Of a stretch of 64,000 nt of DNA, positions 6,121-53,322 are shown in pieces. Every line of letters starts with the position of its first letter. Within the stretch, counting starts at the first letter, position 1. This DNA is from Planctomycetota bacterium (lineage in GTDB: Bacteria > Planctomycetota > Planctomycetia > Pirellulales > Pirellulaceae). Made by a program: the position numbers and the translations under genes. The stretch covers positions 30,099 through 94,098 of the forward strand of contig JBCBOT010000001.1 of NCBI GenBank assembly GCA_039821165.1. The letters are read 5' to 3'. The notes beneath the pieces are model-generated. The model made no database searches, was not told the DNA's origin, and was given only the letters and a program-made list of their open reading frames with translations.

Positions 6121-6184
6121 CCTCACTCCCCAACTGCCTCACTCCCCAACTGCCTCACTCCCCAACTGCCTCACTCCCCAACTG
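6121..6184. repeat. 16-bp tandem repeat (CCTCACTCCCCAACTG)x4 with partial or degenerate flanks
   Basis: Four exact units read directly; partial unit 6113-6120 and a degenerate tail to about 6206. Confidence 0.95.
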
Positions 6185-6292
6185 CCCTTCTCCCCGCTGC
6201 CCCTCCGTGAAACTGGTCTTGTGCCACGGTGACGCGCCCTTTATGAGTCCAGTATTCATTCGGCGCGGATGCCGGATGCGACCCGAATCAGG

Positions 6293-7171: not shown

Positions 7172-7197
7172 AACGCGTTGGCACGACTCGTCGGTGC

Positions 7198-8490
7198 CTA
7201 GCCGCCGTTCCCGTGCTCCTCTGGCAACTGATCGAGCTTTCGGGAGATGAGCTCTTTCTCGGCGCGCGTCGGCGCGAGCTGCCACGCTTGATTGAGTGAA
7301 TCACGGGCCGCGGCAAAGTCTCCGAGTTGTTTTGCCAGATCGGCGTGCGTCGCATGCCAGAGATAGTAGTCCTTCGAGAGCAATTCTGAGTCGATTTCAG
7401 AGAGCGCGGCCATTCCTGCTTCGGGTCCATCACGATAGCCAATGGCAATAGCCCGATTGAGTTGGTGAACGGGCGAGCCTTCGATGCGGCACAGCAAATC
7501 GTAACCTTGCGCGATACGTTGCCAGTCCGTGTCCTTGAAGTCCTGGACGCGGCAATGCTCGGACGCGATCCAAGCTTCAGCGTGATAGCGTGTCACCTCA
7601 TCGGACCGATTGGCTTCGCCGAACCACCGGAAGGCTTCTTGCAAAAGCCGAAGATCCCAAGTGCTACGATCTTGTTCTTTCAGTAACAGGATCGCTCCGT
7701 GCTCGTCGATGCGGGCGTCGAGCCGCGCAGAGTGAAAGAGAAGCAGTGCCATCAACGCGGCGGAACGTCCACCTGCGGTGATCTCATGTTGCGCAAGAAC
7801 GAAAGCGAGTCGCACCGCTTCCTCACAAAGCTCTTCGCGGATGAATTTGTCGGCGACCGAGGAGCTGTAGCCTTCGTTGAACAACAGGTAGATCACGGCT
7901 TGGACGTGGGGCAGCCGCTCCACGATCTCAGTTTCGGTCAAACGAGCTGGCTCGACACTCTCGTCGCGCAGGCGTTGCTTGGCGCGGGTGATCCGTTTTG
8001 CAACGCTGGCTTCGGTCGTCAGCAGAGCACGGGCGATTTCCTGATTGCCGAAACCACAGAGTGTTTTGAGCGCCAGTGCGATCTGTGATTCCGGGGGAAC
8101 ACAGGGGTCGCAGCAAACGAAGACCATTCGGATCAAGTCATCGTGAAAAGAGTGTTCCTCGGTAGGCTTGGATTCGTGCTCCCACTGTTCTTCGCCGAGG
8201 GAGCCCCAACGAGTGTCGCGACGCAGGCGATCAATCGCCTCGTTGGCGGCCACGCGGTGTAGCCAACCGGACGGATTTTCGGGGATGCCTTTGAGTGACC
8301 ACGAAGAGAGCGCTCGCTGGAGCGCCGATTGAACAACATCTTCAACAAGTTCCCAGTGACGCACGCCAAAACGGCGGGTCAGGGTTGCGACGAGTTGCGC
8401 GTACTCGTGACGAAAGAAGTGATCGACCAATTGCCGCGGTCCGGTGTCGCCACCGGCCACGGCTGGTTCCTCGATGTGGTTCACATTCAT
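7198..8490 (-). CDS. ECF42-type RNA polymerase sigma factor with C-terminal TPR extension
   Basis: VEDVVQSA (sigma2), EIARALL...KRITRAK (sigma4), YLLFNEGY, C-terminal TPR; directly downstream of a DGPF/YciI gene. Confidence 0.9.
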   Translation of the reverse strand: MNVNHIEEPAVAGGDTGPRQLVDHFFRHEYAQLVATLTRRFGVRHWELVEDVVQSALQRALSSWSLKGIPENPSGWLHRVAANEAIDRLRRDTRWGSLGEEQWEHESKPTEEHSFHDDLIRMVFVCCDPCVPPESQIALALKTLCGFGNQEIARALLTTEASVAKRITRAKQRLRDESVEPARLTETEIVERLPHVQAVIYLLFNEGYSSSVADKFIREELCEEAVRLAFVLAQHEITAGGRSAALMALLLFHSARLDARIDEHGAILLLKEQDRSTWDLRLLQEAFRWFGEANRSDEVTRYHAEAWIASEHCRVQDFKDTDWQRIAQGYDLLCRIEGSPVHQLNRAIAIGYRDGPEAGMAALSEIDSELLSKDYYLWHATHADLAKQLGDFAAARDSLNQAWQLAPTRAEKELISRKLDQLPEEHGNGG

Positions 8491-8498
8491 CTCGCCGT

Positions 8499-8846
8499 CT
8501 ACATTTCGGCCGAATAGCCGGCCAACTCACGAATTTCGATGCTGCCGCCGTGTTCGGCGATCGGACAACTGCGGGCAAGCTCGATGGCCGCGTCGAGCGA
8601 ATCGGCTTCGAGAATCGAGAACCCGCCGACGAGTTCCTTGGCTTCGATGAACGGGCCGTCGGTGACCGTGCCGTCACCATTGAGAACTTTACCAGCCGGC
8701 AGGAGCCCGTCGCCTCCGTCAACCAGTTTGTCACCGAGTTCGGTGAACCAGACACCCCATTTCTGCATCTGCGTCTGGATTTGCTCGGGCGAATAGTCGG
8801 GCTGTTCTTCGATGTTGTCTCGGTAAACGAACATGAACTTGGCCAT
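8499..8846 (-). CDS. YciI/DGPF family protein
   Basis: TDGPFIEAKELVGGF...GSIEIR motif. Confidence 0.9.
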   Translation of the reverse strand: MAKFMFVYRDNIEEQPDYSPEQIQTQMQKWGVWFTELGDKLVDGGDGLLPAGKVLNGDGTVTDGPFIEAKELVGGFSILEADSLDAAIELARSCPIAEHGGSIEIRELAGYSAEM

Positions 8847-35604: not shown

Positions 35605-35721
35605 GCGAGAGGGACGCCGAGACGGCGAATCCACGTGTTTTTAGCCCTGTACGCCGCATCGACCGGTCGATACACTCTGGGGCCCAAATTCGAAGACCCG
35701 AGAGTTAGCACGACGGAAGTC

Positions 35722-36036
35722 ATGTACGCGATTATTGTTGACGGCGGACGCCAGTATAAAGTCGAACCCGGTATGGAAGTCGACTTGGATTACCGCGATG
35801 CCCCAGCCGGAGAGAGCATCACATTCAACAAGGTGCTCGCGGTGAAGGGCGATTCGGGGCTCACTCTGGGTTCTCCAACGGTGGACGGAGCCACGGTGAC
35901 GGCTTCGATCGTCGGTCCGAAGCAGGGCAAGAAAATCCACGTCCAGAAGTTCCGACGTCGCAAGCACAGCAAGAGCCGAATCGGCCACCGCCAGCTTTAC
36001 ACTCGGGTTAAAATCAACGAGATCGCTGGCGCCTGA
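35722..36036 (+). CDS. rplU: 50S ribosomal protein L21
   Basis: MYAIIVDGGRQYKV...KFRRRKHSKSRIGHRQLYT. Confidence 0.97.
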   Translation: MYAIIVDGGRQYKVEPGMEVDLDYRDAPAGESITFNKVLAVKGDSGLTLGSPTVDGATVTASIVGPKQGKKIHVQKFRRRKHSKSRIGHRQLYTRVKINEIAGA

Positions 36037-36089
36037 CCGCCCTCCCGGGTTCGTTCGGTTCGCCGAATGCTTCCCCTCGGAGTTTCGTC

Positions 36090-37112
36090 ATGCCTTCCAA
36101 CCAGCTCTCCGACTACGAGCTGGGTGAAGTCCTGGGTGTCGGCACGGTCGGCACCATCTATCTCGCCCGAGACAAAGAATCGGGTGAACTCGTCGCGCTC
36201 AAAAAATTGCACGCGCGGGTCAGCCAAAACACGTTGATTCGGGCACGGTTTCGTCGTGAGATGACGATCCTTGAGCGGTTACGTCACCCCAACATCGTTA
36301 ACTATCTGGGCGGTGGGCGTGACGACCAATCCCTGTTCTACGTGATGGAAGTTGTTCAGGGAGGAACCGTTGCGGACCTCCTGAATCGAGGCGGACCGCT
36401 CGCCTGGACCGCCGTCGTCGAACTCACTCGCCAGATTTGCAGTGCGCTGCAGTGCGCTCATAACCACGGCATCGTGCACCGGGATCTCAAACCGAGCAAC
36501 CTGTTCCTCACGCGGGACGGCGTCGTCAAGCTCGGCGATTTTGGAATCGCCCGCGACCTGACCGCAGGTGACCTCACAGGTAGCGGTGTCACGGTCGGCA
36601 CTCATGCTTACATGGCACCGGAACAAATCACTGGAGACCGATCGGTCGATGGAAAAGTCGACTTGTACGCGCTCGGTTGCTGCATGTTCGAGATGCTCAC
36701 CGCACGCAAGGTCTTCCTCGGCGATGACTACGCACGGCTCTTTGATCAGCACCTCAAGTCGCCGCCGCCCTCGGTTCGCGACCATGCGGACTGCCCCGAA
36801 GCGATCGACGCGATCATCAAGAGTTTGCTCGCGAAAGCTGCGGAGGATCGGCCATTCAATGCACGGCAAGTCCAGGGCGTGATGCTGGATGTGGCCCGCG
36901 ATTATGTGGGGGGGCAAGAAGATCAGGGCAATCCACCAAGCCCGGTGTTTGAGGCCGGACGTGAAGAGCTGGTCGAACGAATCAACCGCCGCGTCCAAGG
37001 TGCGACGGCCGATGTGAGTGGCAAGAAAGTCCTGCTCGCGGTCTGCGTCATGGTCGCGATCGTCTCAACCTTGGTGCTGATTTCTCAGTTCACCAATCCC
37101 GACGGACCCTGA
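36090..37112 (+). CDS. Ser/Thr protein kinase with C-terminal TM
   Basis: LGVGTVGTIY, VALK, HRDLKPSN, DFG, YMAPE; hydrophobic C-terminus. Confidence 0.92.
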   Translation: MPSNQLSDYELGEVLGVGTVGTIYLARDKESGELVALKKLHARVSQNTLIRARFRREMTILERLRHPNIVNYLGGGRDDQSLFYVMEVVQGGTVADLLNRGGPLAWTAVVELTRQICSALQCAHNHGIVHRDLKPSNLFLTRDGVVKLGDFGIARDLTAGDLTGSGVTVGTHAYMAPEQITGDRSVDGKVDLYALGCCMFEMLTARKVFLGDDYARLFDQHLKSPPPSVRDHADCPEAIDAIIKSLLAKAAEDRPFNARQVQGVMLDVARDYVGGQEDQGNPPSPVFEAGREELVERINRRVQGATADVSGKKVLLAVCVMVAIVSTLVLISQFTNPDGP

Positions 37113-40558: not shown

Positions 40559-41162
40559 GAGACCCGTGACGAACAAGAAAGTCACGTGAATGTTTGCGTC
40601 GTCCGTGCGACGCGGCGGCTGTCCGTAATGGTCAAAAGACGGTCAGGAGGCTGCAAATGGCGAATTTCGCCAGCGGCAAATCGTTGTTATCAGTCGCAAC
40701 CTGAACGGCCCAAAGCCGTCGCTCTCGTCCGATCGTGACCAAGAATGAGAGAAACCCGGTGTCGCATCGAGTTTCGAACTCTCCAAACCCTACACGCGCG
40801 ATAGTGAATCACCAATGTCAGATTGCAAGAAATCGCAAAACCTCTGGCAGTTGGTCCTCGTTCGGAATCAACGCGATCTCTTGTCCAGGGACACTGTTGC
40901 CCGCTTTCCCACAGTCGGTGGACAGACTTAGGAACCGTTCGGAAACAAGTCCGGCGTTTGTCGGACGCGGTAGCGGCCGGGGAAGACCCGCTCCGGGCCT
41001 GAGAGCCCGACTCTCCCGCGAGCGGGAGAGTGAATGACGAAGTTGTTTCCGAACAATTCCTTAGCGGGCTTGTGTCAGAAGTCACGGAGGATCCTTTGGT
41101 TACCGATCACTGGAAGCTCAAGCACTTGCCCGAGCTTCCGCGGCAACAGAACTCCCCAGCGA

Positions 41163-42173
41163 CTACTCTTTCGATCGGATGTCGCTGACTACCGAAACCA
41201 ACTGAGTCACCAAGGGTTCGCCTGGTTGAGCTTGGAGAGCCCGCTCGAGTTCTTTTTGGCCACGGGCAAGATGCTCCAGCACCAAGTAGTGATATCCGAG
41301 CAGAAAGTGATGCGTCATGTTTGGAGCGGCCTTCCGCACCGCTTCGAGGGTACGCAAATGGTTCTCGTAGACTTCCTTGGATTGATAGAGGTCGCGGACC
41401 GCCTGCCAGTTCCATGTGTTGCCGAGCAGGAGTGCATCGTAAACATCCGCGGCTGCCGCGTCGTAATCATGCTTTGCGAAGTGGGCAAAGCCTCTGAACT
41501 GCAGGACGTCTGAATTCTCGGGCACCAGTTGAACGGCATTGTCCAGTGTCTCGATCGTTTCGTCGTACTTCTTCGCGCGAAACTGAGTCTTTGCGGTTTC
41601 GATGAGACGAAGGAGTTTTTGCTCGGCGGTATCAGCGACCGGGCCCGCGACCACGGTGTCGGCGGCGGTGACCGGTGTCTGTGCAACGATCGTCGTTGAG
41701 CCTGGACCGTGAATCACCTGAGCGGAGGTTCCGGGTGCACCAACGATGACTGTCGAACCGGGCGACGGAGAAACCGGAACGGGACACTGTTTTGGCTTCG
41801 CGGGTGCGAGCAGCGGTTGTGCAGGCTGAAAGTTGCGATTGACAGATTCGACCGCCGTACCGATGACGTCACGTCCGACGATGGTTCCCGGATTGTTGCT
41901 TCTCCGCATGCCGAATCCAATCGGTGGCGTTGGAAATCCCATCGACCCCATGCGTGGAGGAGTCAGAATCTGCGGTCCGCCCCAGGGAAAACTACCGCTT
42001 CGTTGCGACGCGCCCGAACCGCGTGGAGCGCTGCGAAGGGCCGGTCCGATGATGCCGCCGAGGCCGCTGTTCCCACCGGAAAGCCTTGAACCGAATTGGG
42101 CGTTCACGGAAGTGGAAAAGAAGCAAGTCGCGAGCGACAACAGTGCAGTGTATTGGAGAGTTCGTTTCAACAT
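41163..42173 (-). CDS. Secreted protein: Gly/Pro-rich N-terminus and planctomycete-type TPR C-terminus
   Basis: Signal peptide ending VNA|QF; TPR region ...WNWQAVRDLY...FLLGYHY. Confidence 0.85.
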   Translation of the reverse strand: MLKRTLQYTALLSLATCFFSTSVNAQFGSRLSGGNSGLGGIIGPALRSAPRGSGASQRSGSFPWGGPQILTPPRMGSMGFPTPPIGFGMRRSNNPGTIVGRDVIGTAVESVNRNFQPAQPLLAPAKPKQCPVPVSPSPGSTVIVGAPGTSAQVIHGPGSTTIVAQTPVTAADTVVAGPVADTAEQKLLRLIETAKTQFRAKKYDETIETLDNAVQLVPENSDVLQFRGFAHFAKHDYDAAAADVYDALLLGNTWNWQAVRDLYQSKEVYENHLRTLEAVRKAAPNMTHHFLLGYHYLVLEHLARGQKELERALQAQPGEPLVTQLVSVVSDIRSKE

Positions 42174-42239
42174 GGTTCTGATGTAGTTTCGTGGTTGTTG
42201 ATTGAATGAAGTCGATAGGACTTGAGTGATAAGACGTTG

Positions 42240-42437
42240 GCCGTCGGTCTGGCTGGTTTCCTGTTCGTATCTGAACCGGCGGCTAGCGCCGAACCGCTCA
42301 CACTTTGCATGGCCATGAGCGACAAGGCACTAGCTGTCGGTCTGTTTGGTTTCCTGTTCGTATCTAGACCGGCGGCTAGCGCCGAACCGCTCACTCTTTG
42401 CATGGCCATGAGCGACAAGGCACTAGCCGTCGGTCTG
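42240..42437. repeat. 93-bp tandem duplication (2 units plus partial) built from REP family B hairpins
   Basis: Unit starts at 42240, 42333, 42426; each unit has ACCGGCGGCTAGCGCC...GCTCA pairing with TGAGC...GGCACTAG...GTCGGT. Confidence 0.9.
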
Positions 42438-42499
42438 TCCATGCCAGCCCGCGCCGCTCACTCTCCCGAGGTCGGGAGAGTGAAACCCCGGACGCGGCA

Positions 42500-44203
42500 C
42501 TACTTACGGAACGGGTTCTTGAAAGTCGGTTTGGCGGGAGCCGTGACCGCTTGACTGCCGACCGTCGCTCCGGGAGCCGGTTGCACGTTCACGGCAGTTT
42601 GCCCCGACACTCCGATGGCACCGGCTGATTGGCCTTGAGTCGCTAACGCAGCTCCGTTGCCGCCATCGACTCCGGCTGCGAAGGCAGCCCCGCCTGTCGA
42701 GCCGAGTGCCATTGCGTTGCCGCCCTGCCCGGCAATGCCAAGACCTTGACCGCCAGCCTCTCCGATACCGATGCCGGTTCCGCCATCGACGCCAATGCCG
42801 ACTCCTTCGCCGCCATCCAGGCCAACCCCGATACCGGTTCCGCCGTTCGCTCCGATACCGGTGCCAACGCCACCGTTGACGCCGAGTCCTTTGCCGACGC
42901 CGCCATCGATGCCGATGCCAGTCCCCTGACCACCGTTGATGCCGATGCCTTTTCCGTAGCCGCCGTTGATTCCGACACCGGTTCCGATGCCGCCATTGAT
43001 GCCAACACCTTTGCCGACACCGCCGTTGATTCCAACGCCTTCACCGTATCCACCGTTGACACCGATCCCTTTGCCAACGCCACCGTTGATGCCGAGTCCC
43101 TTGCCGACTGCGCCGTTGACGCCGATTCCTTGACCCATGCCGCCGTTTACGCCGATGCCTTCGCCGTAGCCACCGTTGATGCCGACACCTTTACCGATGC
43201 CGCCGTTCATGCCGACACCACGTCCGACGCCTCCGTTGATTCCGACTCCCTTGCCATAGCCGCCGCGGTAACCTTCGCCGATTCCGACGCCGCCGTTGTG
43301 ACCGATACCGTGTCCGAATCCACCTTGGCTTCCAACGCCGAGTCCGACGCCTCCGTTGTGTCCTTCACCAAAACCAAAACCGCCTTCGGTACCGACGCCG
43401 ATTCCGGTGCCTCCGTTATTGCCCATACCGAGTCCAACGCCACCGGAATCTCCGATGCCAACACCCGTGCCGCCGTTCTTGCCGATTCCGATTCCGACGC
43501 CACCGTTGGATCCCACGCCGACTCCCGTGCCGCCTCCGGTACCGATGCCGATACCCACACTGCCTTTGGTGCTCGCGCCGACACCACCGCCGTTGGACGA
43601 TTGACCGGTTCCGCCGTTGACGCCGACACCAATGCCACCGAGCTTCGAATCCACGCCGACACCGACACCGCCTTGGCCGTCGATTGAAACGTTTGCGGGA
43701 CCCTTACCGAAATTCAGTTGCGGACCGTTATTGCCCATCCCGATTCCGATCCCGTTTTTTGGGCTGCTACCTCCGAGACTGTAGCCAGGTCCCGATGGCC
43801 CGCCGATCACATGACCAGACCCTGCTGGACCGCCGAACGCAGGGGCGGAGCCGCCGATCACATGATTCGAAATCCCCGAGCGTTGCTGCGGCAACAACCC
43901 TTGGATGCCTCCTCCGCTGAATGGCACGTGGGTCCCGGACGAGCTGCCGCCGAAGTTCGGGATGATGCCGCGGGGAAATCCAGTGCCACCGTTAGACGGC
44001 TGCACCGCCGGCATCGCGTTGCCACGAGGCATGAAACCACTGCGGATTCCGTTCCCGCCATTCTGCCCGCCCGAGTTCTTGATGCCTTGTTTGATCAGAT
44101 TGCCGAGGTCGAATTGGGCGTGCGCCGTTGCAATCGGCACAAACGCAAGAACCAGAGCGGCAATGAGCGTTGGCGGTCGGTGAATTCGTTGGAGAGTCTT
44201 CAT
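42500..44203 (-). CDS. Secreted glycine-rich decapeptide-repeat protein (GGxGxGxGxN)
   Basis: Signal peptide ending AHA|QF from MKTLQ (44203); 27 consecutive G-x-x-G-x-G-x-G-x-x units at 43564-42755, then 6 degenerate units. Confidence 0.85.
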   Translation of the reverse strand: MKTLQRIHRPPTLIAALVLAFVPIATAHAQFDLGNLIKQGIKNSGGQNGGNGIRSGFMPRGNAMPAVQPSNGGTGFPRGIIPNFGGSSSGTHVPFSGGGIQGLLPQQRSGISNHVIGGSAPAFGGPAGSGHVIGGPSGPGYSLGGSSPKNGIGIGMGNNGPQLNFGKGPANVSIDGQGGVGVGVDSKLGGIGVGVNGGTGQSSNGGGVGASTKGSVGIGIGTGGGTGVGVGSNGGVGIGIGKNGGTGVGIGDSGGVGLGMGNNGGTGIGVGTEGGFGFGEGHNGGVGLGVGSQGGFGHGIGHNGGVGIGEGYRGGYGKGVGINGGVGRGVGMNGGIGKGVGINGGYGEGIGVNGGMGQGIGVNGAVGKGLGINGGVGKGIGVNGGYGEGVGINGGVGKGVGINGGIGTGVGINGGYGKGIGINGGQGTGIGIDGGVGKGLGVNGGVGTGIGANGGTGIGVGLDGGEGVGIGVDGGTGIGIGEAGGQGLGIAGQGGNAMALGSTGGAAFAAGVDGGNGAALATQGQSAGAIGVSGQTAVNVQPAPGATVGSQAVTAPAKPTFKNPFRK

Positions 44204-44398
44204 GGTTGGCTCCGCTGCTTGCTGGGATCGTGATTTTTTGGAGAGCCGATCGCTCCCCAACAACCCATAGGCAAACGCCGCCGAGCAGGGACAACCTTTT
44301 CCGAGATTTCTTTTCTCCGCTCGAATCCAACTCGTCAGCAATGAACGCTACCCATGTGTCCGTCCGAAAAGGTGCAACGCAGTGCATCTCATCTGAGA

Positions 44399-44585
44399 GG
44401 TAACCCGAAACGTCAGTGAGGGAAAGCGAGTCTCGCACCGTCGCGGAGTCCCTTGCTAACGCGGCGGGTTACCCACGTTGGACATCTCGCCCAAAAAGTG
44501 CAACGCACGGGTAACCCGAAACGTCAGTGAGGGAAGCAGGTCTCGCGCACCGTCATGGAGCGCCTTGCTCACACGGCGGGTGAAC
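44399..44585. repeat. Two REP family A hairpins
   Basis: GTAACCCGAAACGTCAGTGAGGGA...TCCCTTGCTAACGCGGCGGGTTAC (44399-44473) and a degenerate second copy (44510-44585). Confidence 0.85.
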
Positions 44586-44633
44586 TTAGAGAAACGCGCG
44601 CGAGATCTGGTCCCTGCCCGTTAAAACCCATCC

Positions 44634-45254
44634 TTAGGCGAAGCCGCCGGCGGAACGCAATTTCGCCAGTGCACGCACGTGCCGCTTCTTCGCCGCTTCA
44701 TGGCTGATGCCGAGAACGATCGCAACCTCTGGACCCGACAACTGCTCAAAGTGCCAAAGCGCCAGGATTTCCCGATCCGCCTCCGACAACGCATCCAAGG
44801 CCGCACGCAGCTTGTCCTGCGTTTCCCGCTGCGAGACGACTCGCGAAGGCGTCGGCTGACTGGAAGACAACTCCATCGCGATGCAACCGGAGTTTGCCGG
44901 TGGAATCCCCTCCAAGTCACGCTCGCGGCGAACGTCGCGTCGCTTCGCATTGAGATGCCGACGATGCGCTTGCGTCAGACTTTGAAGTAGAAGCTTTCGA
45001 AGCCAGAGAAACACGGGCATTGGTCGTGTTTCCAGAAAACGTTCCAAACCATCGATCGCTTGCACAAATACTTCTTGCACGATGTCACAAGCGTCGATTC
45101 TCCCAGCCAGCGCCGGATGAAGCCGCAACTGAACCGTCCGCTCTAACCGTGCCGAGTACTGTTCAAAGAAATGGGTCAGCGCACCATCATTGTCCTGTTG
45201 GCTGAGGGCCAAGAGCTTGTCTGTCTGGTCGTCATCGATTTGAGGCGAAGTCAT
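44634..45254 (-). CDS. ECF sigma-70 factor, planctomycete kinase-associated type (TIGR02984-like)
   Basis: LRLHPALAGRIDACDIVQE...DREILALWHFEQLS..EVA..LGIS..AAKKRHVRAL. Confidence 0.9.
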   Translation of the reverse strand: MTSPQIDDDQTDKLLALSQQDNDGALTHFFEQYSARLERTVQLRLHPALAGRIDACDIVQEVFVQAIDGLERFLETRPMPVFLWLRKLLLQSLTQAHRRHLNAKRRDVRRERDLEGIPPANSGCIAMELSSSQPTPSRVVSQRETQDKLRAALDALSEADREILALWHFEQLSGPEVAIVLGISHEAAKKRHVRALAKLRSAGGFA

Positions 45255-45274
45255 ATCCACGGAAGCCTCTCCAT

Positions 45275-48200
45275 CTATCGAGATTGGTGCGAGGATCGCT
45301 TCGGAATCCACCAAGCATCGATCAAACGCCCATGACGTTCGTTCCCGGAACGATCGGTGATCCTTGTTTCGGTTTCTGCTTGATCCCGACTGAAATCAAA
45401 CAGCAATTCGCATCCTTCATGATTCGTTAGCTCGGACTCGGGTACAAAACCATCTTGGTAGAGCACCCGACTGGAGACCCGGACGGCTCGAATCAAACCC
45501 TCGCCCTTGGGGAGATAGGCGTTGCGATAGATTGAATCCCCAACAAAGAAGGGAGTCTTGACCGGCGGCGCGAACACTGCGGTCGGGATGCACTTCGCCT
45601 CGTTGGCCAGTACTCCATTGACGAACAAGCGTTCGTTTTCTCCGTCATTGCAGAGTGCCACATGAACCCAATGATCTGCTTGAAGCCGTGGCGATGGCAA
45701 GCGAATCCCACTCCTCGCTTGGACGCGCGATGCGTAGAGATCAGCGTAGCTGCGTGAGCGGAGAGGCCTGAATTGGGTTGCGATGGGTGATTCGTGAGCC
45801 TCGATCGAATGACTCCATCGCTGCACCCACGCCTCGATGGTGAAGCCGGAGAATTCATGAAACGGAAGACTTGGAGCGACAATGCGTGCTTCGCCATGGA
45901 GAAATAGGCAGGGTTCGCCGCAAATCATGCGCTTGGCGTTCAAATAATCTGCAAGCGTTTCGGCCGGCGGTCGTAAGTCCGCCGTGATTCGGCCTCGCAC
46001 CGAGAGATACCAGGGATCTTGCGGCGATTGAGCGATCGCTTTGTCGATGGACTCTTTCGCTCGCTCTTCCGCCCGCAAACGGCGTTTGCGAGTCGACAGT
46101 TGATCGGGATACCGCAAGGTGGACCAGATACTGACATCGTTGTCGAACCGATTCGCAGCGAGCTTTCTTCCATCGGGGCTGAAACGCACGCAGCCATCGA
46201 ATTGATAATCTTTCGGTCGAGGCCCGCGGCTGAGTTTGAGAACTTCCTCGCCGGCGAGATTCCAAACCGTCACGTCATCTCGGTTGGCTCCCGCGATTCG
46301 GTCTCCGTTGGGATGCCAGTGCAATTGTTCCACGTTCGGCGGGATCTTCATTTCGGCGATCGGTTTCCAACCCATCTCGCGATCGGGATCACTGGTCGCG
46401 AAGATACCCGCGTTTCCGTCCGTGGTCGCGAACGCGAATCGCCTTGAGTCCGCCGAAAAGTCCAGAGCGGAGATCCCCATACGGTCAGGCGGAAACATCG
46501 CGTCTGGCTCAAGCTCAAGTTCAATCCATTGGGCGTTGAGTGTGGGCATCTGAACGAGACCGATCGAATGGACAAAACCGCCTTGCGAATTCTGATCAGC
46601 AACCGAACGCGCTCCAACTAAAAGCCGGCTTCCGTCCGAATTGAGGCTGAGCTCATGGCACCCGCGCGAGAATCGTCGACGCTCAATCAACGACCATGCG
46701 CTCTTTGTCTCGTCAAAGCTCCAGCAATAGAGAATCGATTCTGAATCGGATTCGCTTGCCGGACAACACGCGACGAGTACTCTGCCGTCGCCGCTCATCG
46801 AAACACAGTTTGCGATTGAATCAAGCGGTTCCGTCGAGTGGACCCGACTGCCACTTTCGACATCATAGATTGCGATTGTCTGATCTTTCTGGACGACAGC
46901 CAATTGATTCCCGGCTTCGTCAAAGCACGCCTCTCGCCGGGAGGCGACTTGGGGAATACCAGCGATCCAATGGAGTTTGAGCAGCCTTCCGCTCTCCGCC
47001 TCGTAAACTTCGATTCGTTTTTCCTGGTAAACAGCGATGCCTGAGCCGCCCCATCGAAATGCAATCGCCTCGGTACCAGGGTAGTTCGAGGTTTTAGTAG
47101 GCGTCTCGCATCGCACATACTCCGGTCGCGAATCGGGTCTCCAAATCCGCACCTGCCCGCTCCAATCACCCGACGCAATCCATTCGCCGTCATGACTGAT
47201 CGCCAAGCTCTGAACGCGATCGGGATGTCCATGCAGCACCCGGACCGGACGGTCCTTGGTCACGTCCCAAACACAGATGCTACCGTCGGTGGCGCCGGTC
47301 GTGATCAGGCCTCGCCCTTCGTGAACTGCGCAAACCGGTTGATAGTAGCTTTTTTGATTGATGAGATGATCTTCGGTGCCTCTCAACTGTTTCCGCAGCG
47401 TTCCATCGCCCAAAGACCTCAACGCCAGGTCGCCGCCATCAACGCAGTCGACGATCAGCCCTAAGCCGGGTGAATAGAGTGCTGACGCAGCAACGGTCTC
47501 GATTGGCTCGGCGAGCCTCTCACCGGTTTCGACATCAAGCATCACTCTTCTCGCCAAATCGGGATAATTCTCCGGCGGTGATTCGCTGTAGTAGTACTCG
47601 ATGGCCTCGATCGTATCGCTCTCATTCGAATCGGCGAGTTCGGTCAGCGTGACGAGGTCGGCACTCCAAACCTGTTCACCCGTTTCCGCGTCCCATGCAG
47701 CGGTCCGAGCGTGTTGAATCCTGTTTCGATTCCAAATCGTCCCGAGAACCAAACGATCATCCGCTGAGAAGCGCAGCCGATAAACCCGTTGATCTTTGGG
47801 AAGCTCCAGCTTCGTAACGACCTCCCTTGATTCGAGTTCCCAAATTTGAACGAACCCCTCCCAACCGGTTTCAAAGTGATTGGTTGCAATCGCTTCGGAG
47901 ACGGCGGCGAAACGACTGTCATGACTGAAGGCGATGTCATAGGCCGAGTGTTCGACCGGTAACTCGCAAACCATCTTCGCAGTTCGCGTGTCCCAAAACG
48001 TCGCGCGGCCTTTGGGTGAGACCCCCCGCGGCCGGACAAACTCAGGCCTTCCTGTTGCGACGGCGATTAGCGAATCGTCGTGACTAAACGTCAAATCCCA
48101 AATCCACTCTGCCTGCGGCGCCGGAATATCAAAGACCGCGACATGCTGGTGCACCAGCGCTTGCAGGTAACCCCATTCCCAGCCCCGACGATCGGTTTGT

Positions 48201-49957
48201 TTTGAACCTGGGATCAGCTGGTCGAGCAACTCGCCAGCCGATTGAGCATCGGTCTCACTGAGCATCTTGACCCGGTCGATCGCGGCGCGGTAGAGCGCGG
48301 ACTCCGCGATTTCCAATCGCTCTTCGGCGAGTGTCTGATTCTTGCCGGCTGCCTTTTGCGCCGAACGTGCGATCTTTGTCTTGATGTTCGCGTCGACGAG
48401 TGCCTCTTCTGCACGAAGCCAACTCCACGCGACGAGCCCGAAAGAAACCAGGAAGAGTGTTGCGAGCGCCGCGGTCAAACCGGACACCAATGGCCTCCGG
48501 CGTATCCATTTGTGCAAACGTTCCAAATTGGTGATCGCGCGAGCCTTGATGGGTTCTCCCACCAGAAAACGCTGAAGGTCTCGCTCAAGTTCCGATGGGG
48601 AGGCATAGCGTTTTGCGGGCTCCTTCTCGATAGCTTTGAGAACGATCGTTTCCAAGTCTTTGGGAACGTTCGAGTTGATCTTTCGTGGAGGAACCGGGTC
48701 TCGCTCCGCGATCGCGCGGATCAGTTGGCTGCGATGCAGTTCTTTGAATGCCGGTTGCAGCGCGAGCAATTCATAGAGCGTCAGACCCAAACTGTAGACA
48801 TCGCTCCGAGACTCGGGCTGCCCCACGCATTGCTCCGGTGCCATGTAGCGGAGCGTCCCGATCATTTCGCCATCGCGTGTCAAATCATCTTCTTCCGTCG
48901 ATTTGGCGAGGCCGAAATCCATGACCCAAACGATGCCTGCCTGATCGAGCATCAAGTTAGCCGGCTTGATGTCTCGGTGCAGTGTGCCCTGGGCGTGTGC
49001 GTACGCTAAAGCATTGGCCACCTGCATGCCGATCTTCGCGACACTTTCCCAATACTTGCCGATATGGCTCGCGCTCCCTGATGACGTTGGTAATGCCGTC
49101 ACACCAGGAAGACTCACGTCAGCTGAGAGCGCGGTGGTTTTTGAAGGAAAGGAAACCGGTTCCAACGTTTCATGTGCTGCATCGATTGATGCCTCTTCCG
49201 CAAAGGCCTGCTCATCCGACACCGCCCCGCTCCCAAAAAGAGACCGAGCCACCTCGGAGGCTTCCGAGTGGACCTTCGGTTCGGCAGAGCCTGCGTTTAA
49301 TCGGGTGGTGGCCGTGGGCGAAGACTGCCACAGCTTCCTCAATTCGCGGATGACCTCGTCGAGCGAAGCTCCTCGAATGAACTGCATCGCGTAGAACAAC
49401 CGACCGTCTTCTTCACCGACCGCGAAGACCGGGACGATGTTGGTGTGGTGCAACATCGCCGCCGCGCGGGACTCTCGTCGGAAGCGTTCGCTATTACGCG
49501 GACTCATTTGGACCGTGGCGGGACACACTTTGAGCGCGACGTGTCGACCCAATGATTCTTGGAGCGCCTCGTAAACGATTCCCATCCCGCCACGACCGAT
49601 CACGCGACGAATCTTGAAGTCGCCGAGTCGGTCGAGTTGCGAGTCCTGGGATCTCGCCTCATCCGTTCCGCTGGGTGCGTTGTCTTCCATGAGCAACATC
49701 ATGGGAAAGACTTCATCGATTCGATCGGCGAGGTCTGGATAGTCTCGCTTGTAATGATCGATGTCGGGGTTCGCGCCCGCGCGGTAACGCTCCAGGTACT
49801 CGTTGGCCAAGTCAATGATCAGATCCGACGCATCGTCGTTTGCTTCCGATGAGAGTGCGGGTTTGGACTCCTGCTCAGAGCCAAACTTCGCAGCATCAAT
49901 GCGAAGCGTGTTTGAGGGGCAGGAACTCCCGCCAGGCACTTCGGAATCGGCGCTCAT
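45275..49957 (-). CDS. Ser/Thr kinase with TM/coiled coil, WD40 repeats and C-terminal LamG/ConA-like domain
   Basis: IGRGGMG, HRDIKPAN, DFG, YMAPE; GH...W-D/x repeats (LHGHPDRVQSLAISHDGEWIASGDWSGQVRIW); FTIEAWV...WVHVALC...LFVNG. Confidence 0.92.
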   Translation of the reverse strand: MSADSEVPGGSSCPSNTLRIDAAKFGSEQESKPALSSEANDDASDLIIDLANEYLERYRAGANPDIDHYKRDYPDLADRIDEVFPMMLLMEDNAPSGTDEARSQDSQLDRLGDFKIRRVIGRGGMGIVYEALQESLGRHVALKVCPATVQMSPRNSERFRRESRAAAMLHHTNIVPVFAVGEEDGRLFYAMQFIRGASLDEVIRELRKLWQSSPTATTRLNAGSAEPKVHSEASEVARSLFGSGAVSDEQAFAEEASIDAAHETLEPVSFPSKTTALSADVSLPGVTALPTSSGSASHIGKYWESVAKIGMQVANALAYAHAQGTLHRDIKPANLMLDQAGIVWVMDFGLAKSTEEDDLTRDGEMIGTLRYMAPEQCVGQPESRSDVYSLGLTLYELLALQPAFKELHRSQLIRAIAERDPVPPRKINSNVPKDLETIVLKAIEKEPAKRYASPSELERDLQRFLVGEPIKARAITNLERLHKWIRRRPLVSGLTAALATLFLVSFGLVAWSWLRAEEALVDANIKTKIARSAQKAAGKNQTLAEERLEIAESALYRAAIDRVKMLSETDAQSAGELLDQLIPGSKQTDRRGWEWGYLQALVHQHVAVFDIPAPQAEWIWDLTFSHDDSLIAVATGRPEFVRPRGVSPKGRATFWDTRTAKMVCELPVEHSAYDIAFSHDSRFAAVSEAIATNHFETGWEGFVQIWELESREVVTKLELPKDQRVYRLRFSADDRLVLGTIWNRNRIQHARTAAWDAETGEQVWSADLVTLTELADSNESDTIEAIEYYYSESPPENYPDLARRVMLDVETGERLAEPIETVAASALYSPGLGLIVDCVDGGDLALRSLGDGTLRKQLRGTEDHLINQKSYYQPVCAVHEGRGLITTGATDGSICVWDVTKDRPVRVLHGHPDRVQSLAISHDGEWIASGDWSGQVRIWRPDSRPEYVRCETPTKTSNYPGTEAIAFRWGGSGIAVYQEKRIEVYEAESGRLLKLHWIAGIPQVASRREACFDEAGNQLAVVQKDQTIAIYDVESGSRVHSTEPLDSIANCVSMSGDGRVLVACCPASESDSESILYCWSFDETKSAWSLIERRRFSRGCHELSLNSDGSRLLVGARSVADQNSQGGFVHSIGLVQMPTLNAQWIELELEPDAMFPPDRMGISALDFSADSRRFAFATTDGNAGIFATSDPDREMGWKPIAEMKIPPNVEQLHWHPNGDRIAGANRDDVTVWNLAGEEVLKLSRGPRPKDYQFDGCVRFSPDGRKLAANRFDNDVSIWSTLRYPDQLSTRKRRLRAEERAKESIDKAIAQSPQDPWYLSVRGRITADLRPPAETLADYLNAKRMICGEPCLFLHGEARIVAPSLPFHEFSGFTIEAWVQRWSHSIEAHESPIATQFRPLRSRSYADLYASRVQARSGIRLPSPRLQADHWVHVALCNDGENERLFVNGVLANEAKCIPTAVFAPPVKTPFFVGDSIYRNAYLPKGEGLIRAVRVSSRVLYQDGFVPESELTNHEGCELLFDFSRDQAETETRITDRSGNERHGRLIDAWWIPKRSSHQSR

Positions 49958-50559
49958 TCGGTCACCAACTTGCGAAGTCGGGCGAGCGCTCGAATATGGC
50001 GTGAACCGGCCGCCTTCTCTGAGATCTTCAGAACGTTCGCCGTTTCTTTCTGTGAGAGTTGCTCGAAATGTCTGAGAGAGAGCACCTCGCGATCCATCGG
50101 ATCCATCTGGCCGAGCGCTTGCTCTAGTCGCACGCGGACCTCGGCGCGAACCGCTGCTTGGCTCGCAGTGGTTAATTGCCCGACCAGCTGCGCCGCGAGC
50201 GCGGCCGAAGTCGCCGTGGAAACGAGCGGGGCGTGGATCGAGACTTCGCGTCCGGCATCGCGCGCCTTGGTACCGAGGTGTCTTCGGTGTGCTTGGGAGA
50301 GTTTTTGAAGGGCGAGGAACCGCAGCCAGACGAAGAGTGGAACTTCCTGCGAACCCAGGTATTCATCGGCGCGCTCGCATGCTTCGAGCTGCGTCTCCTG
50401 AATCACGTCCGACGCATCCACGCGACCGCGCACCCGGGGGTCCAAACGGATCTCGACGAGACGACGCAAGCGGTCCCGGTGTTCCTGCAACGAATCTTGA
50501 AAGCTCGATCGATCCAAGGTGCTCTGCTGGAGAGTCGCTGAGTTTTGGTAGCTAGCCAC
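49954..50559 (-). CDS. ECF sigma-70 factor, planctomycete kinase-associated type (TIGR02984-like)
   Basis: GTG start with GAGGAGG; RLDPRVRGRVDASDVIQET...DREVLSLRHFEQLS; ATGA overlap with the kinase start. Confidence 0.92.
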   Translation of the reverse strand: MASYQNSATLQQSTLDRSSFQDSLQEHRDRLRRLVEIRLDPRVRGRVDASDVIQETQLEACERADEYLGSQEVPLFVWLRFLALQKLSQAHRRHLGTKARDAGREVSIHAPLVSTATSAALAAQLVGQLTTASQAAVRAEVRVRLEQALGQMDPMDREVLSLRHFEQLSQKETANVLKISEKAAGSRHIRALARLRKLVTE

Positions 50560-50631
50560 GAAGATACCTCCTCAAGCACTACTACCAAGCGAAATCACCG
50601 GGCTGCTGCTATTTTTGGATTTTTGCAGAAT

Positions 50632-52341
50632 TCAACGATCGATGCGCGTCTCCGGCGATGAATTGCCGCCACGCTGTCGGTTGCGAGGCCCTCCGGGCGG
50701 TCGCGGACGATCGTCGCCGAAACGGTTGTTACCCTGCCCACCTGGAAGACCGCCGGGGCGGCCCCGAGGTCCACTTTCATCCTCGTTATCAAATCGTCGA
50801 TCACGATCACGACCGCCGGGTGGCTCCGGCGGAGGGGGCATGGCGGCCAATTCCTCCGTGCTGAGAAATCCATCTTCGTTTGAGTCGGCTTCCATCATCC
50901 GTGCACGCTCCAATTCAGGAATCTCCGACTCGCTCAGCTTGCCATCGTCGTTCGTATCGAACTGCCGTAAGAGTCGATTCACCGTTGGCTTGAAGAACCC
51001 GCCGCGATTGAGGTCTTGCGACGAATCCATTTCGTTCGCTTCACCAACAGACTCAGCATCCGACGCTTCCGCCGTCGTCGCTCTGTCGTCGTTGGTCGTT
51101 TCAGTAACTTGTTCAGAATCCTCGACGGGCGTCTTGCTTGGCTCCGACATGAAGAACAACAGACCGGGACCCAAAATTAATCCAAGGAGCAAACACCCTG
51201 CCGCAATCATCAAGACTGGAGGCGTCTTGCGAGGTCGATGCGCTCCCGGCCCGCGAAACGTTTGAACTTGATCCGTGTCCACCGACGGTAAATTGTCAAA
51301 CGGATTGGCAGCGGGTGTCGCGGGGCTACTCGAAGGCTCCACGGAAACCGGTTGTGTGACAGCCGCCGCGACGACCGGTTTGGTTCCCTTCTTTCGAGTC
51401 GACTTTTCAGCACCGCGAACAAACTTGGACAATGCCGCCGCGAAGTGCTTCATCGAAGCGAAGCGTTGCTCGACGTCTTTGGAGATCGCGCGTTCCACAA
51501 TCTTGCACAACCGTGGATCGACTCCCGGACGAAGGTCTTCGAGTTTGCGTGGCTCTTGCGTCAGAATATGCGTCAACAACGTGAGCGTGCTGGCGGAATC
51601 CTTGAACGGAAGTGAACCGCTGAGTGACTCAAACAACACAACGCCTAGAGCGTACTGATCGGTCGCGGGGCCGATGGAGTCACCGCGGAGTTGCTCCGGC
51701 GGCATGTAGGCCGGCGAACCAATCAGTGTTCCCTCTTGCGTGAGACGCGACTCGTCGTTCGCTTCGCTGGGGCAAGCCAATCCGAAATCCATCACGACCG
51801 GTTCCTTGCGGTGGTCGATCATGATGTTCGCGGGTTTCAAATCGCGATGGAGAATCCCGTTTTGGTGCGCTTCGGCCATCGCCAAGGCGACTTTCTGAAC
51901 GATGTTCGCGACGACCTTTTCGCTTTGCGGATTCTCTTTATCGATGTACTCCGAGAGTGGTCGACCTTTGATGTAGGCCATCGCGATGCAATGGATGCCA
52001 TCAATCTCGGTCACGTCATAGATCGGACAAAGGTTGGGATGGGTGATTTTTGCGGCCGCACGAGCCTCACGATAAAACCGTTCGCGCGCCTTGTCGTTTT
52101 CCTTGAGATCCGCTTTGGGCACCTTGAGCGCGACGTCACGATCGAGTTGCTCGTCGCGGGCCAGGTACACAGACCCCATCCCCCCACGACCGAGAAGCTT
52201 ACTGACTTCATAGCGACCGAGTTTCACCGGTAGCGCGTTTTCCGCCAGAGGTCCCTCGCCCCCCCGCGTATCCGACGCGGAAAAGTCGAGGGTCTCCTTC
52301 AGGTTGGAGTCAGACCGTTCTTTCCGAGTTTCTCTGGCCAT
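50632..52341 (-). CDS. Ser/Thr kinase with TM and two C-terminal EF-hands
   Basis: LGRGGMG, HRDLKPAN, DFG, YMPPE; TM IAAGCLLLGLILGPGLLFF; DTNDDGKLSESE and DSNEDGFLSTEE. Confidence 0.9.
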   Translation of the reverse strand: MARETRKERSDSNLKETLDFSASDTRGGEGPLAENALPVKLGRYEVSKLLGRGGMGSVYLARDEQLDRDVALKVPKADLKENDKARERFYREARAAAKITHPNLCPIYDVTEIDGIHCIAMAYIKGRPLSEYIDKENPQSEKVVANIVQKVALAMAEAHQNGILHRDLKPANIMIDHRKEPVVMDFGLACPSEANDESRLTQEGTLIGSPAYMPPEQLRGDSIGPATDQYALGVVLFESLSGSLPFKDSASTLTLLTHILTQEPRKLEDLRPGVDPRLCKIVERAISKDVEQRFASMKHFAAALSKFVRGAEKSTRKKGTKPVVAAAVTQPVSVEPSSSPATPAANPFDNLPSVDTDQVQTFRGPGAHRPRKTPPVLMIAAGCLLLGLILGPGLLFFMSEPSKTPVEDSEQVTETTNDDRATTAEASDAESVGEANEMDSSQDLNRGGFFKPTVNRLLRQFDTNDDGKLSESEIPELERARMMEADSNEDGFLSTEELAAMPPPPEPPGGRDRDRRFDNEDESGPRGRPGGLPGGQGNNRFGDDRPRPPGGPRNRQRGGNSSPETRIDR

Positions 52342-52497
52342 CTCGTTTGGTTCGTCGGCGTCATTCGTGGAACGCCTGAATCGCAGCCTCGCACCCAGGA
52401 ATTTCCAACACAACTATAGTACAGTCGCGGTCGGATCGAGAGGACTCGATTGACAAAGGGAATTGAGTCTTCGAAATGGAAAAAGTCGACGCAAACG

Positions 52498-53322
52498 CTA
52501 CGGCCGTCTTTCTGCCCGTGAAAGCACGACCACACGCGAGTCGACATTGAGAACCTGATGACCGCTGGCGTACTCCACGAACGGCCGCGTCCAGTGACAG
52601 TGCCCGCGGACGATCAGCGTCTTCGGCATCTGCTCCATCCACTGTCGAATCGGAGCGTGGCCTCGTTGGCGACCCACGGGGTCATCCGGCCCGTCGTGCA
52701 TCACAATCAGCTGAGGCTGTTGGGCGGCGACCTCCACGAATGCTTCGCTGTAGTCTTCTTCGGTCCTTCGCCACGGTCGTCGGACGTTGCCGATAATCCC
52801 ACTCACTCCACCGATGCTCATTCCGTGAACGCGGATCACTTGGCCGTCGAGAAAATGGAGTGGCGATGCGAATCGGGGAGCGCCCGAGCGATCGGAGTCG
52901 GCGAACTCATCATGATTGCCCGCAACACCGACGACAAAAGCAAACTCATCCGCAAAGCAACGCCAGACTTCGGTCACGTCACCGCTGCCCCCGCGTCGAT
53001 CGAGTGCGGGCACGGTGTAAAAGTCGCCTGCGAGCACCGCGCCGATTCGCTTGGGGTGGTGACCGTGATTTTCACACAGCTCCGCCAGTTGGCCGGGTAT
53101 CACTTCGCCGAGCAGTCTCGGCATCCGACCTCCGCTCGAGGCAAACGTTTCGCGTCCCTGCAAGTCGGCACAAACCACCATGCCGTCCAGCGTCTCCGGC
53201 AATCCATCGACATCCGCGAAATGAATCGGCAGCAGTTCGGTGCGATAGTCACGTGGTCTTCGACCCGCATTCAAAAACGGAATCGTAGCGACGGGCTCCT
53301 TTTCAAAATTTCGAATTCTCAT
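52498..53322 (-). CDS. Calcineurin-like metallophosphoesterase
   Basis: ADLQG, AGDF, GNHD, MHDGP, GHCH motifs; start MRIRNF at 53322. Confidence 0.85.
   Translation of the reverse strand: MRIRNFEKEPVATIPFLNAGRRPRDYRTELLPIHFADVDGLPETLDGMVVCADLQGRETFASSGGRMPRLLGEVIPGQLAELCENHGHHPKRIGAVLAGDFYTVPALDRRGGSGDVTEVWRCFADEFAFVVGVAGNHDEFADSDRSGAPRFASPLHFLDGQVIRVHGMSIGGVSGIIGNVRRPWRRTEEDYSEAFVEVAAQQPQLIVMHDGPDDPVGRQRGHAPIRQWMEQMPKTLIVRGHCHWTRPFVEYASGHQVLNVDSRVVVLSRAERRP

Follow-up and report, generated by a model that had tools for sequence, protein, structure and literature searches.

Among the described systems that most resemble the locus examined here are EcfP-PknT of Vibrio parahaemolyticus and EcfK-PknS of Xanthomonas citri, in each of which an extracytoplasmic function (ECF) sigma factor is encoded together with a transmembrane Hanks-type kinase and no anti-sigma factor. 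Direct phosphorylation switches on both EcfP and EcfK, which belong to group ECF43. In EcfP a phosphothreonine stands in for the missing acidic residues of region 2.2, and in X. citri EcfK a phosphothreonine in the linker is the crucial activating site. Planctomycetal genomes hold about 40 ECF sigma factors each, and the ECF groups among them that lack an anti-sigma factor (ECF59-62 and ECF217) are kinase associated. The names of these groups are reportedly due to Jogler (2012) and Casas-Pastor (2021). The Pirellula clade has 20 to 60 Ser/Thr kinases according to published comparative genomics, and the WD40 and tetratricopeptide repeat (TPR) arrays of single-span planctomycetal kinases have been placed in the periplasm (PMC11032199). 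Kinase-associated planctomycetal ECF systems are already known from comparative genomics; in the literature surveyed, we found no published target gene, promoter or phosphorylation site for the kinase-paired ECFs. Here we describe a locus of this kind in a stretch of Pirellulaceae DNA (contig JBCBOT010000001.1, positions 30,099 to 94,098), which at its full length of 64 kb is called the window. In it, the genes for two ECF sigma factors (ECF1 and ECF2) and a WD40/LamG kinase precede those for two secreted proteins, one built of glycine-rich decapeptide repeats (the Gly-repeat protein) and one with a TPR domain.

The locus shares with EcfP-PknT and EcfK-PknS the co-encoding of an ECF with a transmembrane Hanks-type kinase, and with the planctomycetal groups the absence of an anti-sigma factor and a neighboring Ser/Thr kinase that carries a large periplasmic repeat domain. 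Unlike in the ECF43 pairs, one kinase lies between two paralogous ECFs, and phosphorylation of the ECFs is proposed here by analogy. We propose that this kinase-coupled ECF module switches on the secreted pair from the pair's own promoter, with the five genes forming one functional unit. On the comparative evidence given below, we rate the two parts of this proposal jointly as evenly balanced between right and wrong.

A five-gene block and the recurrence of its secreted pair in Pirellulaceae

Seven consecutive genes occupy the minus strand between 41163 and 53322 of the window, as seen in the list of open reading frames (ORFs) and their translations. Pfam matches were judged against curated cut-offs, and NCBIfam profiles were scanned as well. 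Every domain that the initial annotation had named for these co-oriented genes was recovered above its cut-off, the TPR call being marginal. The annotation had also joined all seven into a single cassette. That grouping did not hold, as the phosphoesterase gene at the upstream end is unrelated and the adjoining EF-hand kinase gene is not found in L008, the relative with the rest of the block. The remaining five genes are those for ECF1 (49954-50559; 201 aa; Sigma70_r4), the WD40/LamG Ser/Thr kinase (45275-49957; 1,560 aa; Pkinase, WD40 and Laminin_G_3), ECF2 (44634-45254; about 206 aa from the ATG at 45254, with the longest ORF starting at 45314), the Gly-repeat protein (42500-44203; 567 aa; signal peptide ending in AHA ahead of QFDLG) and the TPR protein (41163-42173; 336 aa; signal peptide ending in VNA ahead of QFGS). 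The ECF1 stop and the kinase start share 4 bp (ATGA), and about 20 nt separate the kinase stop from the start of ECF2. Gaps of 430 nt and 326 nt precede the Gly-repeat gene and the TPR gene, respectively.

The same five genes are present in L008 (Pirellulaceae SGMAG-91) in the order and spacing of the window, including the ATGA overlap. Protein identities across the block range from 54 to 86%, and the flanking genes differ. ECF1 is 86% identical to its L008 counterpart, the WD40/LamG kinase 62% over its full length, and ECF2 69 to 70%; the L008 ECF2 has 205 aa and starts 9 nt past the kinase stop.

We compared the surroundings of the pair by looking up gene contexts and scanning GTDB genomes and JGI metagenomes, with loci L018-L095 left out of the count. 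The Gly-repeat/TPR pair was found in about 16 distinct loci, all of them Pirellulaceae or Planctomycetales metagenome-assembled genomes, and the TPR orthologues (35 to 74% identical) each lie directly after a Gly-repeat orthologue. A kinase-linked sigma gene lies 17 to 547 nt from the pair in 8 of the 13 loci with informative flanks. Four arrangements were seen, namely, a co-directional ECF-kinase-ECF run (window and L008), a divergent ECF1/2-like sigma gene and kinase followed by a second sigma gene (L013 and L014), a divergent S243-type sigma gene with a kinase (L002, L010 and L006) and a convergent S243-type sigma gene (L017). By BLAST, the S243-type sigma factor is not similar to either ECF1 or ECF2, and it matches just Sigma70_r2, plus TIGR02937 weakly. 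The distal flanks of the informative loci gave no sigma match. With about 40 ECFs per genome and an assumed genome size of about 7 Mb, a sigma gene within 1 to 2 kb of the pair would by our estimate be expected by chance in a few percent of loci. Because the adjacency recurs across rearrangements at a frequency above this estimate, it points to a functional link between the pair and its regulators. These comparisons argue for linkage of the pair to "a kinase-coupled sigma factor" and not to one orthologous regulator or one cue. Synteny of regulators and outputs in other Pirellulaceae, on which the initial annotation had staked its proposal, thus mostly favors that proposal, as it was found in eight loci and was lacking in the other five.

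Promoters of the secreted pair and intergenic elements

In every locus not of the window type, an ECF-type dyad, TGTAACA-N14/15-CGTAT, lies 65 to 150 nt ahead of the Gly-repeat gene. Further copies are found before the TPR gene in L006 and L056 and before an extra TPR-like gene in L013 and L014. The dyad was recovered in loci outside the set from which its matrix was built (L011, L015, L056, the TPR gene of L006, and L101), against a background of four matches of at least 15 bits in 1.26 Mb of unrelated loci. A copy is found upstream of the kinase gene beside the S243-type sigma gene in L002 and, weakly, in L010. Since the dyad is present even in loci without an adjacent sigma gene, the pair looks ECF dependent throughout. 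Its AAC (-35) and CGT (-10) elements are also those of classical ECF promoters; in Bacillus subtilis, for example, Helmann's reviews give TGTAAC-N17-CGAC for sigma-X and TGAAAC-N16-CGTA for sigma-W.

No TGTAACA...CGTAT dyad was found in the 64-kb window or in L008. Its position is held there by another dyad, TGTCCC-N15/16-CCTAT. In the window, the candidate promoter of the Gly-repeat gene, TGTCCC-N13-TTGCCTAT, lies at 44267-44293 on the minus strand, 90 nt upstream of the ATG. In L008, TGTCCC-N14-TTGCCTAT lies 91 nt upstream of the orthologue in a spacer that has otherwise diverged, and none of 300 shuffles yielded such a shared dyad. The promoter differs exactly in the lineage in which the adjoining sigma factor is ECF2 instead of the S243 type, and we therefore infer a regulatory rewiring. 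Scans for sigma-70 promoters and intrinsic terminators gave results at or below shuffle expectation. In L005, a good TGTAACA-N13-GGTAT site (near position 16354), 5 kb from the pair, precedes a protein of 810 to 929 aa without a Pfam match, which may be a further regulon member.

A GC-rich hairpin, ACTCTCCCG-N4-CGGGAGAGT, with a stem of 9 to 12 bp and no U tract, lies at 42460-42484 (minus strand), 16 to 40 nt past the stop of the Gly-repeat gene. Its second copy, again ACTCTCCCG-N4-CGGGAGAGT, lies at 41010-41034 (minus strand), about 130 nt past the stop of the TPR gene. These are the only two copies in the window, one after each secreted-protein gene, and they could reflect partial termination or a difference in transcript stability. 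The spacer between the Gly-repeat and TPR genes also holds a tandem 93-bp element (42218-42439, minus strand; about 2.2 to 3 copies, 92% matches), and the RNA fold of this spacer is unusually stable (z = -6.1). Within the element is a GGCGCTAGCC-type palindrome, which a palindromic repeat in the divergent spacer of L014 resembles; the element may be REP or MITE like. Between ECF2 and the Gly-repeat gene, two direct copies of another element lie 111 to 126 bp apart at 44360-44590 (minus strand). Their identical core of 24 to 26 nt occurs twice in the window, with zero occurrences expected by chance, and was found in none of the fetched loci. A structured RNA was considered for these repeats and was not supported by their fold (z = -1.3). 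An Rfam scan of the whole cassette gave no family match.

Sigma factors and kinases

ECF1 and ECF2 are ECF (group 4) sigma factors of about 200 aa with only the sigma2 and sigma4 regions, and they are paralogues with 39 to 43% identity. Both show Sigma70_r4 and Sigma70_ECF matches. ECF2 is above the Sigma70_r4 cut-off, and it alone reaches the Sigma70_ECF cut-off; Sigma70_r2 was matched only by ECF2, at 20.0 bits and below the cut-off of 24. The TIGR02937 scores were 60.5 and 71.2 bits for ECF1 and ECF2, respectively, compared to a cut-off of 42.9. By far the best NCBIfam model for both is TIGR02984 (Sig-70_plancto1), which stands for Planctomycetaceae-specific subfamily 1, but the scores of 171.6 for ECF1 and 164.2 for ECF2 are below its cut-off of 183.75. 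No anti-sigma domain was found among the cassette genes in the Pfam and NCBIfam scans. The initial reading of ECFs that lack an anti-sigma factor and are paired with Ser/Thr kinases is therefore upheld, and it follows a known planctomycetal pattern.

That reading had also taken Vibrio EcfP activation as the model, which does not carry over as such. In the ECF43 sigma factors, uncharged residues and a conserved threonine (QTTA or STTA) take the place of the region 2.2 DxxD, whereas the alignment shows the acidic DxxDxxQE to be kept as DASDVIQE in ECF1 and DACDIVQE in ECF2. Their orthologues in L008, L013 and L014 likewise retain both Asp residues. Because the acidic DxxD is kept, ECF1 and ECF2 are not members of ECF43. 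A T-x-[PA]-S motif is present in the sigma2-sigma4 linker of all seven aligned ECFs, one of which is just 20 to 25% identical to the others, and the linker phosphorylation site of EcfK corresponds to this region. As region 2.2 remains acidic, the linker motif would be the likelier phosphorylation target, and we propose it as such by analogy with EcfK.

The VALK, HRD and DFG motifs are intact in the translations of both the WD40/LamG kinase and the EF-hand kinase, and the Pkinase matches identify both as Hanks type. The WD40/LamG kinase (Pkinase, 134 bits; WD40, 79.7 bits; Laminin_G_3, 35.8 bits) consists of an N-terminal helical region, the kinase domain, a transmembrane segment at about residues 490 to 515, extracytoplasmic WD40 propellers and a C-terminal LamG domain. 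The sensor domains of the kinases beside the pair vary, with WD40/LamG in the window and TPR in other loci, and therefore no specific cue, such as a glycan, is conserved. The glycan cue that had been suggested is accordingly not retained as a conserved input.

The EF-hand kinase gene lies upstream of ECF1 (50632-52413, minus strand; possible alternative start at ATG 52341) and encodes a transmembrane Ser/Thr kinase with two extracytoplasmic EF-hands (Pkinase, 159 bits; EF-hand_5, 31.1 bits with a cut-off of 25.9; EF-hand_1, 25.7 bits with a cut-off of 25.4). Both EF-hand loops, DTNDDGKLSESE and DSNEDGFLSTEE, are canonical 12-residue DxNxDG...E loops and are predicted to bind Ca2+. This kinase was not found upstream of ECF1 in L008, the only relative with the rest of the cassette. 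There, a divergent HEAT-like gene lies ahead of ECF1 beyond a spacer of 485 nt, and neither the EF-hand kinase nor the phosphoesterase is present. Because the gene is missing from L008, a Ca2+ input would draw on one genome, and the proposal that Ca2+ is among the signals integrated by the cassette found no support in this comparison. The EF-hand kinase may at most be a lineage-specific extra input.

The secreted Gly-repeat and TPR proteins

The Gly-repeat protein consists of a Sec signal peptide, the mature N terminus QFDLG, a low-complexity region, a conserved non-repeat core (NGPQLNFGKGPANVSIDGQGGVGVGVDSK...), the decamers and an NPFRK end. The decamers, G-x-(N/D)-G-G-x-G-x-G-(I/V), number 30 in succession without indels, and their autocorrelation is higher at lag 20 than at lag 10. 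AlphaFold2 modeling with a single sequence gave 7-residue strands and 3-residue turns over residues 205 to 490 (pLDDT, 80 to 94), so that this region is predicted to be a regular all-beta array. The protein matched no Pfam or NCBIfam family, a PDB sequence search returned no match, and a Foldseek search with the model found no structural match in PDB or BFVD. It thus matches none of the known amyloid or silk families (curlin, Fap, chaplin and spidroin) in Pfam, NCBIfam or PDB. A HMMER search among 1.84 billion representatives yielded about three true relatives (P0014, P0167 and P0232), and the rest were mostly low-complexity look-alikes. A word-indexed homology search performed poorly, with two irrelevant or partial matches and without return of the query itself.

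The orthologues share the signal peptide, a QFDxG mature N terminus and a non-repeat core of 50 residues. Their C terminus is NPFRK or NPFRR in all family members read but one (NPFAP in L056). The L006 orthologue has Asn/Ala repeats in place of the Gly decamers and keeps both termini and the core. Since the signal peptide, N-terminal core and NPFRK/NPFRR end are kept in about 16 loci, the Gly-repeat ORF is a real gene. The relative P0014, a 317-aa protein on a 1.4-kb JGI contig, has a TPR-like helix pair (..AARVAFRRGDYRQAENLMRE..) in the non-repeat N-terminal region upstream of its Gly-repeat core; this fusion may hint at linked functions of the repeat and the TPR. In L056, a 1,454-aa minus-strand ORF with a match to Pfam NAD-GH (PF10712) lies at 4168-8532, directly upstream of the pair, and is probably an antisense reading of a very large plus-strand Gly-rich gene.

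In the TPR protein, the N-terminal half is Gly/Pro rich and disordered, and residues 180 to 336 form a C-terminal helical-repeat domain, for which AlphaFold2 predicts nine helices with a pLDDT of >90. TPR_14 is the sole TPR profile at its cut-off (24.5 versus 23.5 bits), which makes the call marginal. The best Foldseek matches of the domain (E values of 1e-5 to 1e-3) are 3-TPR modules that bind C-terminal peptides (RPAP3, CHIP, Hop, SGT and PP5), the RPAP3 match being a complex with the HSP90 MEEVD. Such carboxylate clamp TPRs (Hop, CHIP/STUB1, RPAP3, SGT and PP5) are cytosolic and eukaryotic and hold acidic EEVD tails with basic residues. In contrast, the TPR protein here is secreted and has acidic and aromatic invariants, and its putative binding partner ends in a near-invariant, basic pentapeptide, NPFRK. 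There are 35 invariant columns across eight TPR homologues, including D243, D246, E308, E319 and aromatic residues. These invariants and the basic, near-invariant NPFRK tail suggest that the TPR protein may capture the Gly-repeat protein through the C-terminal tail of the latter. The TPR protein is rare, with 13 matches among 5.8 billion clusters, and an exact look-up of the window protein returned no record.

The mature N termini of both secreted proteins begin Q-F-(D/G)-x-G right after the AxA site (window 44203-44100 and 42173-42090), and this start is also kept in the orthologues of L002-L017 and L101. It may be a common processing or sorting feature or a pyroglutamate N terminus. L013 (7469-8356) and L014 (7321-8196) encode an extra secreted protein of about 290 aa, weakly TPR related and without a Pfam match, ahead of the Gly-repeat gene. 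The TPR matches in L018-L095, which are soil and freshwater metagenome contigs, were rejected as instances of the same pair. In these loci, distant TPR relatives form the C-terminal ends of 600- to 800-aa proteins, upstream of each of which is a secreted protein of about 320 aa ending in ..V(R/V)RKPPxP..; the two constitute a different, widespread conserved pair.

The upstream phosphoesterase gene

The metallophosphoesterase gene (52498-53322, minus strand; Pfam Metallophos) encodes 274 aa from a start that agrees with the database gene call. It has 587 homologues across the Pirellulales, with about 50% identity (Stieleria, Novipirellula, Bremerella and Rhodopirellula baltica RB11420), and a PDB sequence search with it gave no match. 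In three relatives with 79, 64 and 56% identity, the immediate neighbors include no kinase or ECF/sigma gene, and the nearest recorded kinase or sigma genes are 6 to 8 kb away. The closest of them, L096 (79%), has the same divergent gamma-glutamyl transpeptidase neighbor as the window and shares the DUF5658, TPR/GT41 and methyltransferase neighbors. Because the closest relative shares these neighbors with the window and none of the three has an adjacent kinase or sigma gene, these comparisons indicate that the phosphoesterase is an unrelated bystander that adjoins the cassette without belonging to the functional unit. The synteny in the three relatives also rules it out as the partner phosphatase of the kinases.

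In a TARA marine Pirellulales genome (L098/L099, 4786-7172), the phosphoesterase orthologue adjoins a serine recombinase, an HNH nuclease and an antitoxin-like gene, in surroundings that look like a mobile island. A short soluble Ser/Thr kinase of 340 aa is encoded directly downstream of ribosomal protein L21 in the window (35635-37112) and in L096 (16822-18203). The orientation of this L21-kinase-PTPS block relative to the phosphoesterase is inverted between the two; the cassette therefore sits in a rearranged region.

Proposed mechanism and alternative explanations

In the proposed mechanism, ECF1, the transmembrane WD40/LamG kinase and ECF2 would form a tightly coupled regulatory operon, and the Gly-repeat/TPR pair, both proteins of which would be exported by Sec, would be promoted separately. 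The WD40/LamG region of the kinase would sense an envelope or extracellular cue, upon which the kinase would phosphorylate one or both ECFs, likelier at the linker T-x-[PA]-S. The activated ECF, most likely the lineage-specific ECF2, would then send RNA polymerase to TGTCCC-N15/16-CCTAT, 90 nt upstream of the Gly-repeat gene. Outside the cytoplasm, the Gly-repeat protein would form a long, regular beta array. Its TPR partner would bind it, plausibly by the basic NPFRK-COOH tail, and act as a chaperone, anchor or assembly factor, and the hairpin after the Gly-repeat gene would yield more repeat protein than TPR partner. The phosphorylation partners, the sigma factor that reads the promoter, the TPR-tail interaction and any fiber or matrix role are all inferred from predictions and comparisons of this kind. 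A fiber or matrix role of the Gly-repeat protein is perhaps possible, although we lean against it, and the evidence favors it no more than a role in the periplasm or envelope. More speculative and distinctly doubtful is a complete, hitherto unrecognized Pirellulaceae surface system, in which a beta-solenoid of 30 glycine decapeptides, with a fold new to the PDB, would be captured via its near-invariant NPFRK-COOH tail by a secreted, acid-lined three-TPR "reverse carboxylate clamp" to form a matrix, holdfast or fiber. Its expression would be gated by phosphorylation of the ECF linker T-x-P-S, and evolution would have moved the module between two unrelated families of kinase-coupled sigma factors, with the promoter switching to match (TGTAACA...CGTAT to TGTCCC...CCTAT).

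Several results weigh against the proposed mechanism. No sigma gene was found within 6 to 10 kb of the pair in L005, L011, L012, L015 and L056, and in the first four of these there is neither a sigma nor a kinase gene within 8 to 10 kb; in L056, kinase genes lie 4 to 7 kb away. The sigma factors beside the pair belong to two unrelated families, so that adjacency names no single cognate sigma factor. Neither TGTAACA...CGTAT nor TGTCCC...CCTAT was found upstream of the sigma genes, which thus bear no signature of autoregulation, and a GCAGCC-N15-GTAGTA dyad that the window and L008 share ahead of ECF1 is marginal (p of about 0.04). The TGTCCC...CCTAT dyad is known from two genomes only and differs from classical ECF promoters in having no AAC and no CGT hallmark. 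In the literature surveyed, we found no published experimental phosphorylation of a planctomycetal ECF. The model of the Gly-repeat protein derives from a single sequence, and its topology is not inspectable. The likeness of the TPR domain to peptide-binding modules is at the general fold level (TM of about 0.55, with a large rmsd).

Some of these points would also be expected if the regulators and the pair were merely juxtaposed, with ECF1-kinase-ECF2 running a distant regulon and a sigma factor encoded elsewhere driving the pair. Adjacency would then reflect the density of ECF and kinase genes and their mobility in Pirellulaceae. That the phosphoesterase proved to be an unrelated neighbor, that the adjacent sigma factors are non-orthologous, that the ECF-type promoter is kept in five loci without an adjacent sigma gene and that no sigma gene has an autoregulatory copy of the motif upstream all fit such an arrangement. 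However, adjacency in 8 of 13 loci and in four arrangements is far above the estimated few percent, all five genes of the block moved together between the window and L008, and the promoter changed exactly where the type of the neighboring sigma factor changed; we consider mere juxtaposition unlikely, on a par with the fiber role. A slightly stronger contender, although still a minority view, keeps the proposed regulation and makes the output an envelope or periplasmic stress pair, that is, an outer-membrane- or cell-wall-associated structural protein and its chaperone, rather than a fiber, silk or amyloid. ECF systems mostly answer envelope stress, the TPR partner resembles a peptide-binding co-chaperone module, and the loci show Sec signal peptides only, with no dedicated secretion or usher gene in any of them. 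An indel-free beta repeat of 300 residues, in contrast, would sooner be expected in a surface or fibrous protein than in a stress chaperone, and matrix, fibers and holdfasts have been reported for Pirellulaceae (PMC7716919).

The Gly-repeat protein could alternatively be an RTX-like, Ca2+-binding beta-roll adhesin, with the EF-hand kinase sensing Ca2+ in a calcium-responsive adhesion switch. Like the RTX beta-roll and the mycobacterial PE_PGRS proteins, it has short Gly-rich tandem repeats with a GGxGx turn and alternating hydrophobic residues, is predicted to be all beta and shows a two-repeat super-period. Its decamer, read as GGxGxG(I/V)Gx(N/D), is similar to the RTX nonamer GGxGxDxUx, the stronger lag-20 autocorrelation is as for two repeats per coil, and the two canonical EF-hand loops lie outside the membrane. 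However, the period is 10 and not 9, RTX position 6 holds Gly instead of the Ca-ligand Asp, neither HemolysinCabind (PF00353) nor any other Pfam family is matched, and Foldseek found no beta-roll. The protein also has an N-terminal Sec signal instead of a C-terminal type I secretion system (T1SS) signal, its L006 orthologue carries Asn/Ala repeats instead, and conservation of the block does not extend to the EF-hand kinase. Taken together, these points make the calcium switch improbable, more so than the surface system outlined above. That the Gly-repeat ORF is a low-complexity artefact might be suspected from the lack of a family match, the 313-aa ORF that overlaps it on the opposite strand and the poor performance of HMMER and word-based searches. 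The signal peptide, QFDxG start and 50-residue core shared by about 16 loci, the NPFRK/NPFRR end of all but L056, the promoter conserved at a fixed distance and the in-frame, indel-free repeats leave this explanation with almost no probability.

Implications

Kinase-associated ECFs apart, the locus adds an ECF-kinase-ECF layout, a candidate target pair with defined promoters, an apparent swap of sigma factor and promoter, and an uncharacterized protein pair, all of which are worth testing. It offers a test case in which a compact ECF-kinase-ECF operon lies beside a candidate target pair with a defined promoter. The related loci supply a natural comparison set, with the same target pair behind a different promoter and beside a different sigma family. 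Two of the seven genes first assigned to the cassette, those for the phosphoesterase and the EF-hand kinase, are not conserved parts of it. In the literature surveyed, we found no published assignment of proteins to the matrix, fibers or holdfasts of Pirellulaceae. The locus defines a rare secreted pair, a Gly decapeptide-repeat protein with a near-invariant NPFRK tail and its TPR partner, which could together form part of the matrix or holdfast material known from reports on the family.

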